Positions 2-61,709 of a stretch of DNA of 64,000 bases are shown here, piece after piece. The stretch is from Candidatus Gastranaerophilaceae bacterium (GTDB lineage: Bacteria; Cyanobacteriota; Vampirovibrionia; Gastranaerophilales; Gastranaerophilaceae), in contig JAZLGV010000132.1 of the NCBI GenBank assembly GCA_045616505.1, positions 3,245-67,244 of the forward strand, written 5' to 3'. Positions within the stretch are counted from its first letter, which is position 1. Each line of letters opens with the position of its first letter. Both the position numbers and the translations under genes were made by a program. The notes beneath the pieces are model-generated. The model was not told the DNA's origin. It ran no database searches and worked only from the letters and a program-made list of their open reading frames with translations.

Positions 2-634
2 AAAAAGAAATTTATTGAATTAATAACTTACGGAGTGGATTATTATTCAAATCCAGAAGATGTATTAACAATTATTTGTCATGAAATTTGCCGTTTGTAT
101 GATATTCCAACTGCAAAAGTTATTGAATTTGATTTAGAAAGTAACCGTTTGAGATTGATAAAACAATTCGTAGATACTTCAAAAGCAGATATGAAAGAGT
201 TTATGGGTATAAAAAAATACGGTTATGAAATTATGAATTTCTGGTTGCCGATTATTAAAAAAGAAGCTCCTAGTGGCGAAGCAAAAAATTATGATTTAAC
301 TGATGAAACCTTCTTACCTAAAAATTTGGTTGAATTTTATAAAGAAATTAATATCCGTTCAAATTTGGGTGTAACAATTGATTCAACAAGTACAAGGAAA
401 CGCTCTTTGTGTTTGTTTAGTAATAAACCTGCTTCTTATTGGGATGATGAGTTGAAATATTTAAAATTGATTGCAAAGAAAATTGCATCATTATTGAAAA
501 ATATTGAAATAAAAAATAAATTGGAAGAAGTACAAACCGATATAGATGCATTAGTTGAAGCTAGTGATAATAAATCAAAAGATGAAATTAAAGCTGACTT
601 GGTAAAAATATTAGCTGGTATAAATGTTGCATAA
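2..634 (+). CDS. GAF-like sensor-domain protein; its 5' end is probably outside the window
   Basis: The reading frame is open from nt 2 up to the window edge, whereas the track ORF begins at GTG 35. The C-terminal half (NIRSNLGVTID...RSLCLFSNKPASYWDDELKYLKLIAKKIASLL) has a GAF-like pattern. The stop is TAA. Confidence 0.5.
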   Translation, partial: KKKFIELITYGVDYYSNPEDVLTIICHEICRLYDIPTAKVIEFDLESNRLRLIKQFVDTSKADMKEFMGIKKYGYEIMNFWLPIIKKEAPSGEAKNYDLTDETFLPKNLVEFYKEINIRSNLGVTIDSTSTRKRSLCLFSNKPASYWDDELKYLKLIAKKIASLLKNIEIKNKLEEVQTDIDALVEASDNKSKDEIKADLVKILAGINVA

Positions 635-690: not shown

Positions 691-771
691 TTGTTTAAAT
701 AAAAATAGCAATTTTTATTTTCAGTTGTTTTATACTAGATGTGTGTAGTATTAGAAGGAAAAGAAAAAAAC

Positions 772-1512
772 ATGAAAATTAGTGCTTTAAATAGTTATTC
801 ACAAGCTTCATTTAAACAAAACAATGTAGCTTCAAAAAATGTTACAACACCTGCTTTTGAAGGTACTCAACATATTGCAAAAGTTTCAGGTAAAAAATTA
901 GCAATGGCTCTTGCAGCAGGTTTAGCAATTGCAACTCCTGCACTTCAAAGTTGTGCTTCAAATCAAGTTCAACCAACAAGAGTTCAAGCTCCAGAAATAC
1001 AAAAAACTCCAATGGAAATAGCTTTAGAAAATGCAGAAAAAGCTGCTCATACACAAGCAAGAGCAGAAGCTCAAGCAAAAGCTGATGCTTTAGCACAAGA
1101 AAAAGCAGACGCTCAAGCTGTAATTGTTGCAGAAAAAAGAGCAAAAATGTATGCAGAAGAAAGAGCAGACGAAAACGCTACTAATTTAGCTACCTCTAAA
1201 GCAAGTGAAATCGCTAAAAAATTAGCTACATATAAAGCACAAGATATTTATAATGAAACAGGTAAACCTGCAACTGTTACTGAAACAGCAACATATACTG
1301 CAACTGCTAATGGCTGGTGTGGTTATTATTCAAGAGAAATTGGAGTAGCAACTGCAAAAGCAACTGTAACTACTGAAAAAGTTGGCGATAATCCAACAGA
1401 AGAAATTACAGAAGGCGCAATTTCTCAAAAAGAAGCAACTCATTATGCAGAATATACAGCTACATCAACTAAAACAGCAACTGCAACAGAAACAGTAACT
1501 GTTGGTGAATAA
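772..1512 (+). CDS. hypothetical Ala/Thr-rich protein with an internal lipoprotein-like signal
   Basis: ATG 772 (MKISALN...) lies downstream of GAAGGA; the track start 739 adds 11 aa. An h-region plus lipobox (LAMALAAGLAIATPALQSC) sits about 45 aa in. AQAKADALAQEKADAQA and TATYTATA low-complexity blocks follow. A terminator lies downstream. Confidence 0.6.
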   Translation: MKISALNSYSQASFKQNNVASKNVTTPAFEGTQHIAKVSGKKLAMALAAGLAIATPALQSCASNQVQPTRVQAPEIQKTPMEIALENAEKAAHTQARAEAQAKADALAQEKADAQAVIVAEKRAKMYAEERADENATNLATSKASEIAKKLATYKAQDIYNETGKPATVTETATYTATANGWCGYYSREIGVATAKATVTTEKVGDNPTEEITEGAISQKEATHYAEYTATSTKTATATETVTVGE

Positions 1513-9160: not shown

Positions 9161-9523
9161 TTAAGAAAGTTCAAGTAATGCTTTTACAGAACGAGCGTTA
9201 TCTTTTACTGATTCAATTTCGCAATTTTTTTCTGTTTCAGAAAGTATTTCAAGGGCTATGACTTTGTTTTCTAAAGCAATAAGATTGTTTATTGTTCCCA
9301 TAGCAACTGTTGTATCAAGGTCATTGATACCTTTTCCGTCTTTTGAAATAATAACAGATAAAGAGTCTTTTGAATTTCTTTCAACAAGAGCTTTTGCTGT
9401 AAGCATTCTAACTTCTGAATCTGCACAATTTGTTCCGATTTCTTCCAAAACGCCAACAGCAGAACTGTCTTCGTGCTTTGATAGTGCATCTATTACATTT
9501 GCAAGTTTTTCGTTATTATCCAT
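9161..9523 (-). CDS. hypothetical small helical (HEAT-like) protein
   Basis: It is a 120-aa ORF that overlaps the upstream ORF by 8 nt. Its helical repeat pattern (VGVLEEIG...SEVRMLTAKALVE) is HEAT-like. Confidence 0.5.
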   Translation of the reverse strand: MDNNEKLANVIDALSKHEDSSAVGVLEEIGTNCADSEVRMLTAKALVERNSKDSLSVIISKDGKGINDLDTTVAMGTINNLIALENKVIALEILSETEKNCEIESVKDNARSVKALLELS

Positions 9524-9986
9524 TGATTATTCCTCTTGATTCAATTAAATTAATCATTTCAGTTCTTAAATCAGTAACATCTCGTCTTACAAGATTTTTT
9601 ACATTATAAGTATTATTTGCTAAATCCATTTTGAAAAATCTTTCAGAAGAATTGAAATTGAAAATAAGTTTAGAATCGTTCAAAAATTCAGTTACATTTC
9701 TCATTCCTTCTCTCATTCTTCTTCCAAAAGAAACAACAGAATCAAATCTGCCTGAAATTTTTTGGTTTAAAGAATTTATTGAACCTAGAACAGTATTGAA
9801 AGCTAATCTTCCTTTTTGAGTGATTTTTTCAGATATTTTTTCTCTCAAACCTACTTTTTTAGCGCTTTCAAAAACATCTGCTGTTATAATGTTTCCTCTG
9901 AAACTTGCTCCAAATGGGTTTGTATGATTTTGTGTTGTTTTTGCTCTAGGAGTAAATACGTTTTGTGAAATTTTATTTATTTGCAT
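9516..9986 (-). CDS. hypothetical protein carrying the shared N-terminal leader
   Basis: It is a 156-aa ORF and the first gene of the operon that ends with the cyclase and rqcH. Its N-terminus is MQINKISQNVF...ASFRGN. Confidence 0.5.
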   Translation of the reverse strand: MQINKISQNVFTPRAKTTQNHTNPFGASFRGNIITADVFESAKKVGLREKISEKITQKGRLAFNTVLGSINSLNQKISGRFDSVVSFGRRMREGMRNVTEFLNDSKLIFNFNSSERFFKMDLANNTYNVKNLVRRDVTDLRTEMINLIESRGIING

Positions 9987-45958: not shown

Positions 45959-46738
45959 ATGGATAGTTTGTTAACAGCAATAGCAAAAATGTTTCCTGCT
46001 TTTGATGCAAATTTTGCAGCAGGATTTATTGTTTTTTCCCGTTTTTTAGGCTTTGTTTGTTTTGCTCCCGTTTTTTGTCGAAAAGATTTTCCTATGATTG
46101 CAAAAATAGGTTTTGTTTTTTTGACGACTATTATGATAGTTTGTATTTTAAAACCTTCTGCTCCACCAATGGGAAATGATATAATTGTTCCAATTGTGTT
46201 AAATTCAGCGGTAGGTGCGATGCTTGGGTTTATGGCAAGGTTAATTTTGATTGCTGTAGATGCAGGCGGAGATATGATTAATATGCAAATGGGGTTATCT
46301 TCTGCGATGGTTTTAGACCCAACTTCTCAAAAACAAGTGTCTTTGATGGAAAATATTTTTTCACTTTTAGGTGTTTTGATTTTTATAAATGTTGGTGGTA
46401 TTTATTGGCTTTTTAATGCTTTTATGAGAAGTTTCGATGTGTTTCCTTTATATGCGATGTCAATTCCTTTGATGGACATTGTTAATTTTGATTATTTACT
46501 TAAAATGACATCTAATGTGTTGTTTATGGGGTTACAAATAGCGTCACCAATTTTGCTTGCAACATTAGGACAAGATATTATTCTTGGTACGATTTCAAAA
46601 ACAGCTCCTCAAGTAAACGTATTTCAATTGAGTTTCTTATTTAAACCTGTTTTTGGCGCAGCAATTATGATTTGGATTATGCCAATGATGGTAAATGTTA
46701 TAACTGAATATTTTATGTCTTTTTCAAGAATTTTTTAA
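45959..46738 (+). CDS. fliR: flagellar export gate protein FliR
   Basis: It is a 259-aa polytopic protein. FSRFLGFVCFAPVF and GGDMINMQMGLS are typical of FliR/SctT. Confidence 0.9.
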   Translation: MDSLLTAIAKMFPAFDANFAAGFIVFSRFLGFVCFAPVFCRKDFPMIAKIGFVFLTTIMIVCILKPSAPPMGNDIIVPIVLNSAVGAMLGFMARLILIAVDAGGDMINMQMGLSSAMVLDPTSQKQVSLMENIFSLLGVLIFINVGGIYWLFNAFMRSFDVFPLYAMSIPLMDIVNFDYLLKMTSNVLFMGLQIASPILLATLGQDIILGTISKTAPQVNVFQLSFLFKPVFGAAIMIWIMPMMVNVITEYFMSFSRIF

Positions 46739-54513: not shown

Positions 54514-54723
54514 TTATTTTAGTAATAAATAGGCATCTAGTTCAAAAAAGTTTGCTATTTGTTCTATTTTATCTATTGTTATGTTTATTCTTCCTTTTTC
54601 AAGTCTGGAAATATATGAATTATCAACACCCAAAATTAAAGATAGTTCTTCTCTACTTATTTTTTTCTTTATTCTAAGTTTTTCAATATTCTGTGCTAAT
54701 TTGTTTCTGCTTTCTTGACTCAT
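54514..54723 (-). CDS. XRE-family helix-turn-helix protein
   Basis: It is 69 aa with LAQNIEKLRIKKKISREELSLILGVDNSYISRLEKG. Confidence 0.8.
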   Translation of the reverse strand: MSQESRNKLAQNIEKLRIKKKISREELSLILGVDNSYISRLEKGRINITIDKIEQIANFFELDAYLLLK

Positions 54724-54816: not shown

Positions 54817-56907
54817 TTAGAATTTTATTTTTGCAGAGATTGTACCTTTAGCTTTTTTAGTATCAAGGTTATATGAAATATTTCCTTCAACAGTTGTGTT
54901 TTCTTTTTCAAAACCAAAACTTGAAGTTAATTCTGTTTCGTCTTTGATTGTTTCGTCAAACAAATTGATTGCTATTTGTTCTTTTTCTTGTTCAACACCA
55001 AGTTTTGCAAAGATATTTGCATCGTTGATTTTGTAGTTTGCTCCAATTTCTGCGTTATATCCTGAATGTTCAAAATGTGGGGTGTGAGAATAAAAACCGC
55101 TTGCATTTGCTGTTAAATTAAGATTTTCTGTAGGATTGTAATTTAATTTTGAAGCTCCTTTGAAATTAATTCCAGCAGCAAGGTTGTGTCCTGTTATCGA
55201 TTGGTCATATTCTTTTTGATTTAAGTCTAAAGGCATTCCAACGCTTAATTGATTTGTAAAATCTAATTTATCGTTTTTAAACTCTGCTTCAACACCGACT
55301 TCATCGGTAATTCTTAAATCACCGTCTGTAATAAACATTCTTGCTTTACTATTTGCAGCTCCATTTCCTTGAATTCCAACACTGCCAAGTACAGAGAATT
55401 TTGTATTTTCTGTTTCAGCAATTTGTTTTTTGTCTGTTGCATTTGCATTTATTGCTGCATAATATTGAGTCATTTTTGAATCTATTATTGCAGATATAGT
55501 TGAATCTGCATTTAGTGTTACAGAATTTGTTCCTTTATTAATTTGTTTTGTTAAATCCGCATCTAAACCAATAGAAGTTGCTTTATCAAATGATTTTGTA
55601 TTTTCAGATATTTTTAATTCTGCTGAATAGCTACCTTGATTAATAATTGAACTTCCATTTGCAGTATTTTCTTCTTTGGTTTTAGTTAAATTAATTCCTT
55701 TTGTTGAAATTGTCAAAGAATTGTCATCTTTTATATTTGTTTTATCAAATAAATTTGTTTTGTCTGTGCTTGATTTATCTAGTTTTTCACCAAACGCAGC
55801 TTCTTCTGTATAAAGAATTTTTTTGAAAGAACCTTCGTTACTTTTTAATCCTAAATATCCTTTAGAAGTGAAATTGTTGTCTTCTTTAGAGATTTGTTTG
55901 TAGGCATCTTCAATGTTATCTGCTTCATAAACTTGGCTTTTTTCGTAGTTGTTCCAAACGTATTTGTCACCAACTTTGTATAAAAGTGTTGCATGACCCA
56001 TTGCTTTATTATTTGTTTCTTGTAAACCTGATATAACAGTTGCAGGTATTTCTGATTCTGTAAGCATATCTGCAACAAGTCCATGCATTGTTTCACAAAT
56101 TGCACCTTTTACTTCTTCTGTGAAATCAGCATTTACAAATTGCATTAATTTTTCTGGGTTTGTACCTTCTATTCCAGAATAGTCCAAATCATAGTCATAA
56201 TTTTCGCTAAAATCTGCCAACATACTATCGACTAAAGTTCCGATATATTCAGGATTATCTTTGTTTTTAGTCATAGAGTCGATGGTTTTTTGATAAACTT
56301 TATCGGCTGAACCTGAAAGTTTTGCACAATCTTCTATATCTGAAAAATTGGCAATTTCCATATCATCAATGATTTTGTTAAGTTTTTCTTTGTTTTTTTC
56401 AGTGTCCTTTTTGAAATTTTCATTTTTTTCTTCTAAACTTTCGATATCCATTTTTGTGAAAGTCATTGTTGTTGTGAGCTTTGACAAACTTAGTTTAGTT
56501 TTGGCATAAGGGACAGTATTTGGTTTCATTTTTTCTAATTTTTCATTAAGTTCTTTATATTCTTTTTTTAATTCCTCCATTTCAGAATTTAATTTATCTA
56601 TTTCTTGTTGATACATTTCTGGATTTTTTTCATACTTTTCGATGTCTGCTTTTAGTTGCATTGCTTCGCTATAAGTTTTTGTGTCCATACTTCTTTTTTC
56701 AAAATCGAAAGGAGAAAATTCGTTTTCATTTTTTGGGAGTTCAACTATTTCTTTTTGTGTATTATTAGTATCTGTTTTTTCATCAGAAAAAACAGATGTA
56801 CCATTTTGATAACTGTATTCGTCATCAAAATTTATTTGGCTATTTGTATTTTCGCCAAATTGTATATTATTTTCAAATTTTGAATTTGTAATTTTTATTG
56901 AATTCAT
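54817..56907 (-). CDS. signal-less protein with a coiled coil, a transglutaminase-like Cys-His core and a C-terminal beta-barrel
   Basis: GAICETMHG...GHATLLYKVGDKYVWNNYE has papain/transglutaminase-like spacing. The last ~260 aa are alternating beta strands ending GTISAKIKF (terminal Phe). An in-frame stop lies just upstream of the start. Confidence 0.7.
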   Translation of the reverse strand: MNSIKITNSKFENNIQFGENTNSQINFDDEYSYQNGTSVFSDEKTDTNNTQKEIVELPKNENEFSPFDFEKRSMDTKTYSEAMQLKADIEKYEKNPEMYQQEIDKLNSEMEELKKEYKELNEKLEKMKPNTVPYAKTKLSLSKLTTTMTFTKMDIESLEEKNENFKKDTEKNKEKLNKIIDDMEIANFSDIEDCAKLSGSADKVYQKTIDSMTKNKDNPEYIGTLVDSMLADFSENYDYDLDYSGIEGTNPEKLMQFVNADFTEEVKGAICETMHGLVADMLTESEIPATVISGLQETNNKAMGHATLLYKVGDKYVWNNYEKSQVYEADNIEDAYKQISKEDNNFTSKGYLGLKSNEGSFKKILYTEEAAFGEKLDKSSTDKTNLFDKTNIKDDNSLTISTKGINLTKTKEENTANGSSIINQGSYSAELKISENTKSFDKATSIGLDADLTKQINKGTNSVTLNADSTISAIIDSKMTQYYAAINANATDKKQIAETENTKFSVLGSVGIQGNGAANSKARMFITDGDLRITDEVGVEAEFKNDKLDFTNQLSVGMPLDLNQKEYDQSITGHNLAAGINFKGASKLNYNPTENLNLTANASGFYSHTPHFEHSGYNAEIGANYKINDANIFAKLGVEQEKEQIAINLFDETIKDETELTSSFGFEKENTTVEGNISYNLDTKKAKGTISAKIKF

Positions 56908-56978
56908 ATAACACACCTAACATAGTTATATTTATAACTTCGTCATAAATACAAAAAACTTAAGTGCATGAATTAGTT

Positions 56979-56987
56979 ATTTTACAA
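56979..56987 (-). promoter_or_regulatory. TTGTAAAAT promoter-like motif upstream of the 696-aa beta-barrel gene
   Basis: The exact 9-mer lies on the minus strand 72 nt upstream of ATG 56907. Confidence 0.45.
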
Positions 56988-56997
56988 ATTGTAAACT

Positions 56998-58014
56998 TTA
57001 TTCCATTTCTTTTATGTATAATTCTTCTAGCAAAATATAGATAGCCATTGCAATAGGTGGTGCAAATAACACTCCTAAAACTCCAGCATATTTTGCTCCG
57101 ATGAATAATGCTAAGAAAATTATTATTTGGTGTAAATTTAAAAATTTGCTATATACATAAGGTCTTACAATATGGTTTTCAATGAAATGTGATATTGTAA
57201 ATAAAACAGTAACGATAATAAGTGTTTTAATTCCAAATGAATAAGTTGCGATTAAACAAATTATTAAAGAAACGCCTGAACCTACAACAGGAATCATTGC
57301 CATAATACCAGCAATAAGTCCTAGAATAATAGCATAATCAATTTTGAATAATAATAAGCCCAATGTCATTGTTATCCAAACACTTGCGCAAACTACTGTT
57401 TGAGCCATTATATAACCACTTAATTTTTCTGAAATGTTATCTATAATTGTTTTGGTTTTATCTCTCATTTCTTTAGGGAAAAGTTTTAAGATATTTTCTT
57501 TTATAATTTTGTCATCAAGAATTAGGAAGAATATAAAAATAATTCCTGTGAAAACATATAAGAATATAGAACTTAAACTTTCGATAAAAGTTAATAAATT
57601 GTCAATTACTCCAGAACTAGAATTTGCAAAATCTGTAAGTAGTGTACCTGTTTTAAAATTTGTCATTCCAAGTGATTTTGTAAATGCAAGGCTGTTTAGT
57701 TTGTTGTCTAAATTAGTTATGTAAGTAGGGAATTCTTTTGCAAATTCCGTAATTTCGTAAGCTCCTAAAATGAGTATTGGTAAAACACATAGAGCAATAA
57801 TTAAAATTGTTCCAAGTAAAACAATGACAGTTGCCCAAGTTCTGCTTATTTTTTTGCTTAATTTATCTACTAATGGATTTAGAGAACAAGCAAATACTAT
57901 TGATATAAAAAATGTAAAAGCAATATCAATATTTTTATAAATAAAAAGTATGAATAATGCTGCAAGAATTATAAAGTAAAAAGTTTTTTTATCTAATTTG
58001 TTTAAAATATTCAT
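56998..58014 (-). CDS. AI-2E family (PerM/UPF0118) transporter
   Basis: It is 338 aa with about 8 TM segments. The C-terminal IVRPYVYSKFLNLHQIIIFLALFIGAKYAGVLGVLFAPP matches the family signature. Confidence 0.85.
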   Translation of the reverse strand: MNILNKLDKKTFYFIILAALFILFIYKNIDIAFTFFISIVFACSLNPLVDKLSKKISRTWATVIVLLGTILIIALCVLPILILGAYEITEFAKEFPTYITNLDNKLNSLAFTKSLGMTNFKTGTLLTDFANSSSGVIDNLLTFIESLSSIFLYVFTGIIFIFFLILDDKIIKENILKLFPKEMRDKTKTIIDNISEKLSGYIMAQTVVCASVWITMTLGLLLFKIDYAIILGLIAGIMAMIPVVGSGVSLIICLIATYSFGIKTLIIVTVLFTISHFIENHIVRPYVYSKFLNLHQIIIFLALFIGAKYAGVLGVLFAPPIAMAIYILLEELYIKEME

Positions 58015-60770: not shown

Positions 60771-61709
60771 TTATATTTTTTGCCAAATTATTGTATTAGT
60801 TTGGTCTTTAGTGAAGTAGGGTTTGAAACCACAATTTTTTATAATTTCTGGAATTTGTCCTTTGACATCTTGAGTTTGGTGAATTTCATCACTTCCGATT
60901 ACAAAAAGCCCGTTTTTGTTTAGTTTTGAATATATTGATTTGATAATTGGTGTTAAATCTTTTTTAAGGTCATTAGAACTTTTCAAATTTCTTTCTATTA
61001 AATTATCAGAAATAATATTTGTTACGTGATACATAGCATTTCTAAAGAAAATTACATCATAGTCATTGTTTTTATCAATTTTATCTAAATCTGCAATATT
61101 TCCTTTTTGGAATTTACAGTTTTCTATTAGTTCAGGTTTGATTTTAAAATATTTTGTTTCGGTCGGGCATGCAATAGTTGTTTTCATCACAAATCTATCC
61201 CAAAATGGAATTTTAGCTTCTTTTTTAGATATTTCATTAACATTTTGCGTGAATAAATCTTTGTAATGAGCTTGTTCTGGTGAAAGATTGATAGTTTTAT
61301 TTATTAAAAAATTATCTTTAAAACAATCACGTGAATTTATTTTTTCAAAATCTTTTGGGCGTTTGTTTGCATAAATGGAGAATATTCCTTTTTCTGCTTT
61401 TTTTAAACAGTTTTCACTTAAATCTACTCCTGTGATTGAAATTTTGTTTTTCAAATCTTTGAAAGTCATGGCAAGAGAATATGTTTCTTCTCCTGTTGAG
61501 CATGCTGCGTCTAATATTTTTATATTTTTATTTTGTGGTAATTTTTTTAAGAAGTTTTTTACGATTTCAATGGGTTCTATATCTCTGAAAAAGCATGTTT
61601 CATTTATCAGAAGCGTATTTTTTTGAATACTTTTTGATATGGTGTCAGAACCTAAATAACTTTTAAAATTTGGTTTAGTATTATAATTTTGACAGCTGTT
61701 TATTTGCAT
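60771..61709 (-). CDS. CheR-type SAM-dependent methyltransferase
   Basis: It has INETCFFRD, ILDAACSTGEETYSLAM, DVIFFRNAMYH and NGLFVIGSDE. No other che genes are nearby. Confidence 0.8.
   Translation of the reverse strand: MQINSCQNYNTKPNFKSYLGSDTISKSIQKNTLLINETCFFRDIEPIEIVKNFLKKLPQNKNIKILDAACSTGEETYSLAMTFKDLKNKISITGVDLSENCLKKAEKGIFSIYANKRPKDFEKINSRDCFKDNFLINKTINLSPEQAHYKDLFTQNVNEISKKEAKIPFWDRFVMKTTIACPTETKYFKIKPELIENCKFQKGNIADLDKIDKNNDYDVIFFRNAMYHVTNIISDNLIERNLKSSNDLKKDLTPIIKSIYSKLNKNGLFVIGSDEIHQTQDVKGQIPEIIKNCGFKPYFTKDQTNTIIWQKI

Follow-up and report, generated by a model that had tools for sequence, protein, structure and literature searches.

How an outer-membrane β-barrel protein could reach the periplasm without a signal peptide is the question raised by a gene in a 64,000-nucleotide stretch of DNA (hereafter, the window) from a Gastranaerophilales-type (Melainabacteria) gut bacterium of about 29% GC. 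To our knowledge, all characterised bacterial outer-membrane β-barrels cross the inner membrane via Sec with a cleavable signal peptide, and we know of no bacterial pathway that delivers a signal-less β-barrel to the periplasm. The original prediction described a transglutaminase-like core joined to an outer-membrane-type barrel in a protein lacking a signal peptide. This observation proved to be real as a whole: the gene, the barrel, the motif, and the N-terminus were all confirmed.

Results

Gene, start region, and family

The features of the gene are summarized in Table 1. The AGGTG sequence lies 6 nt from the ATG, and a GTG at 56916 is an alternative start that adds three residues. The in-frame stop proposed just upstream of the start was present, and the 90-nt spacer upstream of the gene contains further in-frame stops. 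A promoter and terminator scan gave a signal no different from that of shuffled sequence. An upstream extension in orthologues had been named as a point to check; none was found, and in seven related loci a stop lies 1–26 codons upstream of the start (1–25 codons in L002–L006 and L009, and 26 in L015). In addition, the start region (56739–57067) was identical and gap-free in contigs of an independent gut-metagenome run. A frameshift or wrong start that hides a normal signal peptide has nothing in its favour except that outer-membrane proteins are generally expected to carry one. Such an artefact is extremely improbable and effectively refuted by the several spacer stops, the good Shine-Dalgarno sequence before the ATG, the agreement of the independent sample, the stops at the seven other loci, and the finding that about 75 independent representatives of the family are signal-less.

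Table 1 Features of the gene and its product, with positions in the window.
Feature	Position	Strand	Evidence or remark
Complete gene, 696 aa plus stop codon	54817..56907	-	Stop codon 54817-54819; intact ORF from ATG
Shine-Dalgarno AGGTG (56914-56918), overlapping in-frame upstream stop TAG (56917-56919)	56914..56919	-	Sequence reading
Disordered N-terminal region, residues 1-69, S/T/N/I-rich, no h-region	56701..56907	-	pLDDT <50 in both models; Kyte-Doolittle
Residues 24-43, QINFDDEYSYQNGTSVFSDE, local version of the family N-terminal motifs	56779..56838	-	N-terminal alignment, motif scan
K/E-rich long helices 76-94, 98-125, and 132-182 (residues 76-182), coiled-coil-like stalk	56362..56682	-	AlphaFold2 secondary structure
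Helical subdomain (NKxNPE, YD motifs) and transglutaminase-like α/β core, residues 186-364	55816..56352	-	Pfam (sub-threshold), model
Cys271 codon, predicted nucleophile	56095..56097	-	Invariant, 61/61
His305 codon, predicted general base	55993..55995	-	Invariant, 61/61
Asn320 codon, predicted third triad member	55948..55950	-	Asn 48/61, Asp 13/61
Ordered linker, residues 365-396, motif EEAAFGEKLDK	55720..55815	-	pLDDT at least 90
Outer-membrane-type β-barrel, residues 397-696	54820..55719	-	AlphaFold2, Foldseek, alternating hydrophobicity, connection lengths
C-terminal BAM-type β-signal KGTISAKIKF, residues 687-696, followed by the stop codon	54820..54849	-	Sequence and family comparison

Among the best relatives of the protein, P0001 was a 100% self-match and the orthologues P0002 and P0003 were 75–78% identical. 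An exhaustive search yielded about 126 cluster representatives (79 at E < 1e-30), all from metagenome assemblies; none of them is named or has a Pfam domain. When the alignment A2 and P0006 served as queries in word-index homology searches, only 6–10 unnamed proteins and no further annotation were obtained. Scans of JGI metagenomes, for which A2 and the alignment A3 were too divergent as seeds, found relatives neither of the family nor of a 1523-aa ORF of the window (see below). The protein belongs to an uncharacterised family centred on Gastranaerophilales, the non-photosynthetic Cyanobacteriota of animal guts.

Overall structure and the C-terminal barrel

The structure of the protein was predicted by AlphaFold2 using an alignment of 61 sequences (pLDDT 89.1, pTM 0.82). 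The model consists of a disordered region (residues 1–69), helices (76–259), an α/β core (271–364), an ordered linker (365–396), and a barrel (397–695); its pTM shows that the enzyme module, linker, and barrel are predicted as one rigid unit. The K/E coiled coil that had been expected ahead of the enzyme core appeared as the long helices 98–125 and 132–182. This segment is an insertion in the subfamily of the window protein and a few other members, is largely missing from P0006–P0008, and gave only coiled-coil noise matches in Pfam and NCBIfam. The linker motif EEAAFGEKLDK is the most conserved of the family: E369, A371, F372, G373, K375, D377, and K378 are invariant among close relatives, G373 and D377 are conserved at 90% or more among the 61 sequences, and the linker length is nearly constant (35–40).

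The predicted C-terminal barrel was recovered with high confidence. Its strands are antiparallel, and DSSP counted 15 of them when 397–414 is taken as one strand, or 16 if 397–401 and 404–414 form a hairpin. Across the family, at least 90% of one strand face is hydrophobic. The barrel connections alternate between constant and variable lengths, as expected for such a barrel with a periplasmic C-terminus. Full-length models were used as Foldseek queries in two PDB searches and one viral search. Against PDB, 240 matches were obtained at E ≤ 1e-3, the best 50 of which were all outer-membrane barrels; among the matches listed, CdiB, FhaC, TamA, and OmpG ranked at the top and FapF was also present. 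The FhaC match had an rmsd of 5.5–5.6 Å over 320–344 columns.

The BAM β-signal read at the C-terminus (...TISAKIKF) was likewise substantiated, since its alternating hydrophobicity is kept family-wide and such a signal ends almost all family members. In 77 full-length relatives, the last residue was hydrophobic in 92% and Phe in 56%, and positions −3, −5, −7, and −9 were hydrophobic in 71, 84, 88, and 86%, respectively, versus 10–23% at even positions. The C-terminal ~300 residues were thus shown, at the level of the model, to be a BAM-type outer-membrane β-barrel with a canonical C-terminal β-signal.

The best structural matches, the Omp85 barrels FhaC, CdiB, TamA, and BamA, have about 16 strands, including short seam strands, and rely on a C-terminal β-signal, which resembles the window protein as modelled. 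Unlike Omp85 proteins, the family has no POTRA domain and no VRGY/loop-6 motif, and the identity was only 7–12%. No POTRA or Omp85 Pfam match was found in 61 members even at E ≤ 1, and the loop-6 motif [VI]RG[YF] occurred in only 2 of 77 members, at unrelated positions and by chance. The Omp85 match is a generic barrel likeness, not a specific family relationship. Type V autotransporters (Va) and Hop-type interrupted barrels (Vf) also combine a functional module and a barrel in one polypeptide; all type V proteins, as far as we know, carry Sec signal peptides. The autotransporter-like layout claimed for the window protein held as a loose analogy (module, then barrel), but the strands number 15–16 rather than 12, the passenger is helical and α/β rather than a β-helix, and no Pfam match to the autotransporter β-domain (PF03797) was found at E ≤ 1. 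Hence, although the order of the modules and the ranking of FhaC, CdiB, and TamA would suit a classical type Va autotransporter or a two-partner-secretion/Omp85 transporter, the strand number, the lack of these domains and of the VRGY motif, and the missing signal peptide make this assignment highly improbable.

The order of stalk and barrel is the same as in FapF and in OmpM/SlpA (SLH), the latter from the same broad lineage as the window protein. In diderm Terrabacteria, SlpA has an SLH domain and a helical stalk N-terminal to its outer-membrane barrel (PMC9388160). In contrast to OmpM/SlpA, the window protein has neither an SLH domain (no Pfam match in the family) nor a signal peptide, and an enzyme module lies between its stalk and barrel.

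Transglutaminase-like module

The Cys/His pair noted in the original prediction was fully conserved, and position 320 is occupied by Asn or Asp (Table 1). In the window protein, the catalytic motif reads GAICETMHG...GHATLLYKVGDKYVWNNYE. In the AlphaFold2 model, Cys271 is located at the N-terminus of helix 271–284, and His305 and Asn320 are on the adjacent strands 301–312 and 315–320. The same arrangement, in which Cys begins a helix while the His and Asp/Asn residues lie on neighbouring strands, characterizes the transglutaminase-like superfamily (PF01841; papain clan; including BTLCP/LapG, PF06035), and the family motifs G-x-x-C...(G)IPA-x-x-x-x-G and H-A-x-x-x-Y...Y-x-x-N/D are similar to the transglutaminase core signature.

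The assignment to this fold accordingly stood in motif and topology, but the Pfam score was sub-threshold: Transglut_core (PF01841) gave 15.7 bits for the whole protein and 18.8 bits for the isolated domain, spanning profile positions 5–103 of 108, against a gathering cutoff of 23. It was the only recurrent Pfam family among the members (5 of 27, best E 4e-5); OMP_b-brl, MipA, and DUF2490 matched weakly in single members each, and Peptidase_C93 in one. With sequence profiles, PDB gave no match to the family as a whole and no more than chance matches to the enzyme domain. In the full-length fold searches, barrels occupied all 50 ranks listed, and the transglutaminase-like fold is a putative one. 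Unlike PF01841 members, the module falls below the gathering threshold, has no PDB sequence match, and is fused to an outer-membrane barrel. Judged by sequence and model, the ~180 residues before the barrel probably constitute a transglutaminase-like module of the papain clan that is divergent but keeps the triad Cys271-His305-Asn/Asp320 intact.

N-terminus and the missing signal peptide

The absence of a signal peptide was borne out not only for the window protein, in whose N-terminus the maximum 12-residue Kyte-Doolittle mean is at most 0.07, but also for the family: no signal peptide or hydrophobic h-region was detected in ~75 of 77 full-length representatives. Transmembrane helices were not found either. 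The exceptions are two distant relatives of the same architecture, P0115 and P0119, which have classical signal peptides; that of P0119 ends precisely at the boundary (LPTxY) at which P0106, P0107, P0098, and P0120, all signal-less, begin. Classical signal peptides are also present in BamA and Skp (L014) and in BcsC and GH8 (L015), encoded on contigs with family members. A Sec signal peptide is thus missing from the family except in rare distant relatives, one of which carries it at this mature boundary. A possible precedent, the "porin candidates without signal peptide" of Thermotoga (PMC3387000), proved not to be one.

The family N-terminal motifs consist of an amphipathic strand ending in ...Y-x-N-E...N-G, followed by S[IV][FW]. 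Such a strand could mimic the Hop (Vf) arrangement, in which it would be the first barrel strand and the helices and enzyme would form a giant first extracellular loop displayed on the surface. Consistent with this, about 45 of 69 representatives have a transmembrane-strand-like motif (phi-x-phi-x-phi-x-Y-x-N-E) at the N-terminus, the uninterrupted DSSP strands number 15 if 397–414 counts as one, and parity with a periplasmic C-terminus puts the N-terminal end of strand 397–414 at the same side as the hypervariable loops. However, the KG break at 402–403 is compatible with a hairpin and hence a normal barrel of 16 strands, the window protein has a degenerate form of the motif, AlphaFold2 leaves residues 1–69 unstructured (though the query N-terminus is poorly aligned), and P0119 and the minimal members P0098, P0106, P0107, and P0120 lack such a strand and begin directly with the enzyme module. 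We consider an interrupted barrel unlikely.

A second possibility is that the 69-residue disordered, S/T/N/I-rich N-terminus acts as a type III signal for flagellar export, with periplasmic release at the rod stage and BAM insertion near the flagellar base. Besides the missing signal peptide, the neighbourhood offers some support: a fliN-like gene and fliO, fliP, fliQ, and fliR lie 8 kb from the gene, the adjoining signal-less 1523-aa ORF shares SVFSDE with the window protein at the same N-terminal position, and in L006 the homologue has flgB- and flgC-like ORFs at a distance of about 2 kb. Nevertheless, linkage to flagellar genes is not conserved across loci, and a disordered N-terminus is missing from the minimal members of the family. 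The shared SVFSDE is a weak match (pairwise E 0.18), and S[IV][FW], restricted to one family subgroup and the 1523-aa ORF, is not enriched as a general N-terminal signal (0.0014 in ORF N-termini vs 0.0007 overall, six matches only). We know of no β-barrel that uses this route, and flagellar export is very unlikely here. Across 10 independent contexts, no conserved partner or secretion gene was found beside the family gene. A 1447-aa N-terminally anchored protein encoded upstream of the homologues in L002 and L005, unrelated to the 1523-aa ORF, was considered as TamB/AsmA-like and rejected (no Pfam support at E ≤ 1).

Finally, the protein may not be exported at all, being cytoplasmic or freed only by lysis or in vesicles, with a barrel that is soluble, oligomeric, or membrane-attacking. 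The family-wide lack of signal peptides and the absence of transmembrane helices would agree with this, and bulk surveys report many predicted barrels of Terrabacteria without a detectable signal peptide, which they leave unexplained (PMC10629564). On the other hand, the classical β-signal is conserved, the hydrophobic strand face is maintained, the fold matches listed are outer-membrane barrels only, the same architecture occurs in signal-peptide-bearing relatives, and the gene stands among housekeeping genes with no adjoining immunity or lysis gene. A lack of export is thus quite unlikely.

Discussion

We consider it somewhat probable that the family combines a transglutaminase-like enzyme with a BAM-type barrel and crosses the inner membrane without a cleavable N-terminal signal peptide. 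If the barrel has 16 strands and its C-terminus is periplasmic, the enzyme module would sit at the periplasmic mouth of the barrel, and from the model it is more likely to be periplasmic than a secreted passenger. There it may have cysteine-peptidase or transamidase activity towards a substrate of the envelope, candidates being a peptide of peptidoglycan, a protein in transit through the barrel, or the AAFG linker of the protein itself, while the K/E helices of this subfamily would form a periplasmic stalk. The conserved AAFG of the linker may recall the di-alanine cleavage site of LapG; LapG/BTLCP proteases are Sec-exported, soluble, and periplasmic, whereas this family has no signal peptide. 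If the protein crosses the inner membrane independently of a cleavable signal peptide, the best candidate for its recognition element would be the disordered N-terminus, in which short motifs are conserved.

A more far-reaching reading is tentative and, in our judgement, rather doubtful: that this BAM-type barrel family has dispensed with the Sec signal peptide and uses an unrecognised Melainabacteria route, with a periplasm-facing transglutaminase-like enzyme as cargo. Such a route might rely, for example, on the motifs in the disordered N-terminus, on the export gate of the flagellum, or on a machine yet to be recognised, and the cargo enzyme may process or cross-link envelope components.

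The family thus comprises about 126 clusters with strong conservation of the catalytic residues and the β-signal and a high-confidence barrel model, yet has no signal peptide, although BamA, Skp, and BcsC encoded on the same contigs as family members have one. The signal-peptide question is directly testable, because the signal peptide of P0119 ends at the point where signal-less members begin. The family provides a concrete, tractable example of the signal-less Terrabacteria barrels noted in surveys (PMC10629564). A ~16-strand barrel with a transglutaminase-like enzyme docked to it, as modelled here, would be a new architecture, found in a gut lineage that is uncultured and about whose envelope very little is known. 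If the proposed reading is true, it would imply an unrecognised inner-membrane route for an outer-membrane protein in Melainabacteria.

Gene and family of the target protein

The target gene was uninterrupted and had the sequence AGGTG six bases 5′ of its ATG. The original prediction that no signal peptide was hidden upstream was borne out: a TAG codon directly preceded the alternative GTG start, more in-frame stops lay in the 90 nt that separate the target from the AI-2E transporter gene upstream, and contigs of an independent gut-metagenome run covered window positions 56739–57067 with 0–2 substitutions and no gaps. This gap-free cover ruled out an assembly error in the start region. A strain of run X3 carried an in-frame 9-nt insertion (window ~56004–56017) that fell into the variable loop immediately ahead of His305 (LQETNNKAMG region), a spot that also varied in length among orthologues.

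A word-index homology search returned only eight unnamed relatives without Pfam domains. Among species-representative genomes, relatives occurred in one MAG from horse faeces (75% identical) and in five MAGs of 'Candidatus Gastranaerophilales', and the runs containing the target sequence were gut or faecal metagenomes. The GC content of the window was ~29%. An exhaustive profile search yielded 126 representatives at 50% clustering, 107 of them with E ≤ 1e-10 and 79 with E ≤ 1e-30; the majority were 580–750 aa long and matched end to end. The family is known from metagenome-assembled sequences, and all evidence on it is computational. No names, Pfam domains or publications concerning it were found in homology and literature searches.

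The neighbourhood of the family gene varied by species (features in the table below). The order AI-2E transporter, target, ABC-F was shared by the window and one other locus (L001), genes for an EF-hand protein and for a histidine phosphatase occurred near the family gene in three loci (L003, L004, and L006), L002 and L005 had a 1447-aa anchored protein upstream, and unrelated housekeeping genes were seen in other loci. No dedicated secretion partner was apparent across the compared neighbourhoods, and no paralogue of the target was found in the window or related loci. The EF-hand (calcium-binding) gene was the divergent upstream neighbour in its three MAGs; its 185-aa product had no signal peptide. 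In L002 and L005, both Gastranaerophilales MAGs, the gene directly upstream on the same strand encoded the 1447-aa protein, which carried a membrane anchor at its N-terminus; this protein had no Pfam match even at E ≤ 1 and was unrelated to the 1523-aa ORF of the window. An XRE-type helix-turn-helix (HTH) gene followed the target on the same strand, and a similar gene lay ~4.6 kb from the family homologue in L012/L013; no functional link to the target was established.

Locations of the features discussed (window, other loci, and target residues)
Feature	Location	Strand	Description
Target gene	window 54817–56907	−	696-codon ORF
XRE-type HTH gene	window 54514–54723	−	69 aa, immediately downstream of target
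fliN-like (FliN/FliM_C-domain), then FliO, FliP, FliQ, FliR	window 43129–46738	+	Pfam
1523-aa ORF	window 38361–42932	−	no signal peptide, no Pfam match
M[QKN]I[NS]-start ORF	window 9516–9986	−	
M[QKN]I[NS]-start ORF	window 60771–61709	−	
M[QKN]I[NS]-start ORF	window 739–1512	+	
M[QKN]I[NS]-start ORF	L002 14505–15935		
M[QKN]I[NS]-start ORF	L003 6191–6805	−	
1447-aa anchored protein	L002 2844–7187; L005 1754–6097		
EF-hand protein	L003 6867–7424	−	equivalents in L004 and L006
P0115	L010 3043–4998		distant relative with classical signal peptide
P0119	L016 760–2190		distant relative
Disordered segment	residues 1–69		AlphaFold2 (61 sequences)
K/E-rich helices	residues 76–94, 98–125, 132–182		AlphaFold2 (61 sequences)
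Conserved helical subdomain	residues 188–259		AlphaFold2 (61 sequences)
Alpha/beta core	residues 271–364		AlphaFold2 (61 sequences)
Ordered linker	residues 365–396		AlphaFold2 (61 sequences)
Continuous antiparallel meander	residues 397–695		AlphaFold2 (61 sequences)

Predicted barrel and enzyme module

AlphaFold2 gave a mediocre model from eight sequences (pLDDT 66.8) and reached a pLDDT of 89.1 and a pTM of 0.82 with 61 family sequences. The K/E coiled coil proposed from the sequence corresponded to three modelled helices. The proposed C-terminal outer-membrane-type barrel was modelled as an antiparallel meander, and outer-membrane barrels alone were found among the 50 Foldseek matches listed against the PDB (CdiB, FhaC, TamA, OmpG, porins, TonB-dependent transporters, and LptD). 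FhaC aligned with an rmsd of 5.5–5.6 Å over 320–344 columns, and the target-normalised TM-score with OmpG was 0.57–0.58. A fold search of a viral library likewise returned barrels. Each strand had one face at least 90% hydrophobic family-wide, and the C-terminal BAM-type β-signal originally noted in the target was kept throughout the family. Length-invariant and variable connections alternated, and relatives had up to 170 additional residues in the one at 476–479; such alternation agrees with a barrel whose C-terminus is periplasmic and whose extracellular loops vary. DSSP counted 15 strands, or 16 if 397–401 and 404–414 form a hairpin across a Lys-Gly break. The latter seems more likely, since known bacterial barrels are even-stranded. 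That the barrel is closed, how many strands it has, and where the enzyme module sits are inferences. Conserved polar barrel residues (GD-R at 529–532, N552/S555/G557/D561, and S445/G447/D449) suggest a functional lumen or a surface where the linker docks.

The transglutaminase-like core stood in its catalytic residues and layout, but not as an assigned Pfam domain. Transglut_core scored 15.7 bits with the whole protein and 18.8 bits with the isolated domain (profile positions 5–103 of 108) versus a cutoff of 23. No other Pfam family recurred in the family: Transglut_core matched 3 of 61 members at E < 0.01 and, with the domain searched alone, 5 of 27 sequences (best E 4e-5). Across 61 diverse sequences, Cys271, His305, Y316, and A335 were invariant, and position 320 was Asn in 48 and Asp in 13. 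In the model, Cys271 is the first residue of a helix, with His305 and Asn320 on strands next to each other, which is the papain/transglutaminase arrangement. Sequence-profile searches of solved structures matched neither the family nor the enzyme domain. On these results, we regard the module as a divergent cysteine enzyme of the transglutaminase-like kind, probably active, and not as a certified PF01841 member. Conservation in the family peaked at the motif EEAAFGEKLDK of the rigid linker, which was almost fixed in length and may serve structurally as a clamp or plug. LapG substrates are cleaved at a di-alanine site, and by analogy one might speculate that the motif is an autoprocessing site.

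Absence of the signal peptide

Among 77 full-length representatives, P0115 alone had a clear N-terminal hydrophobic segment, P0095 being doubtful. Stops lay 1–25 codons upstream of the start in six loci (L002–L006 and L009); in L015 the distance was 26 codons. The absence noted for the target extended across the family, P0115 and P0119 excepted. The lineage is diderm, and BamA (POTRA plus Omp85) and Skp were encoded on one contig with a family member. Classical signal peptides were present on BamA and Skp of the contig of P0048, on BcsC-like and GH8 proteins adjoining P0107, and on several window proteins; the absence is a property of the family rather than of the lineage.

The most informative comparison was within a subgroup of short members. 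P0119 begins with a classical signal peptide followed by the mature chain, MKLIIITIIISLSNVVYSQS|LPTNYSSY, and the signal-less P0107 and P0106 begin MA|LPTTYNEF and MAD|LPQTYSD, with P0098 and P0120 alike. The signal-less members thus begin exactly at the expected mature start of their Sec-processed relative. P0115 carries its signal peptide before the enzyme module on a 55% GC contig, and P0119 lies on a 30% GC contig, beside an ankyrin-repeat gene. The architecture thus exists outside Gastranaerophilales with normal Sec targeting. The comparison supports an extracytoplasmic ancestry and function of the architecture, and it shows that the signal-less lineages lost the signal peptide, rather than that the search overlooked it.

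Most Gastranaerophilales members have a Lys-rich start and then an amphipathic, strand-like phi-x-phi-x-phi-x-Y-x-N-E...phi-x-N-G motif; in a second subgroup, phi-x-phi-N-G/P occurs near residues 5–15 and xS[IV][FW] at residues 31–39. The window protein has degenerate copies of both, QINFDDEYSYQNGTSVFSDE, and both fall inside the disordered region. Export or assembly may use them for recognition. If the barrel were interrupted, the motifs would be its first strand, but minimal members without the motifs speak against this and against an essential structural role. Several otherwise unrelated ORFs start M[QKN]I[NS]... and have, in their first ~30 residues, a motif resembling P-x-F-[KR]-[GQS]; one of them is a CheR-type methyltransferase that bears this stretch as an N-terminal extension. 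The resemblance may reflect an N-terminal tag specific to the lineage or chance.

Proposed export and function

We propose that the target crosses the inner membrane by an unknown non-classical route. The only signal-peptide-independent exporter visible nearby was the flagellar export gate, whose cluster with switch genes confirms a flagellated organism. Carriage by this gate seems improbable: SVFSDE is common to the target and the adjacent signal-less 1523-aa ORF at the same N-terminal position, but the match is weak (pairwise E 0.18), no linkage was kept across the compared loci, and minimal members have no disordered N-terminus. The 1523-aa ORF, divergent to the export-gate genes, contains an HExxH-like motif (HEAGH) and, in its middle part, hydrophobic segments rich in Gly/Ala. 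A JGI metagenome scan detected no relatives of this ORF, whose product might be secreted as an effector or toxin-like protein.

Once the protein has crossed by the non-classical route, the BAM machinery that the lineage possesses would insert its barrel, and 16 strands would place the enzyme module at the periplasmic mouth. As a peptidase or transamidase, the enzyme would have peptidoglycan peptides, a barrel-transiting protein, or its own linker as its substrate.

The target would work as an outer-membrane protein that carries an enzyme. Autotransporters, Omp85/TpsB transporters, and SLH-anchored OmpM/SlpA connectors (PMC9388160) are similar to it, but it belongs to none of these groups. The autotransporter-like layout originally suggested is no more than a loose analogy, and the target is neither a classical autotransporter nor an Omp85/TpsB transporter, as no autotransporter domain, VRGY motif, POTRA or Omp85 domain was detectable in the family. 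A large survey found fewer Terrabacteria barrels with detectable signal peptides and gave no cause (PMC10629564); the present family is a sharply defined case of such barrels. What appears new is the architecture itself, as predicted from sequence and model, and what is surprising is the export problem that it would pose.
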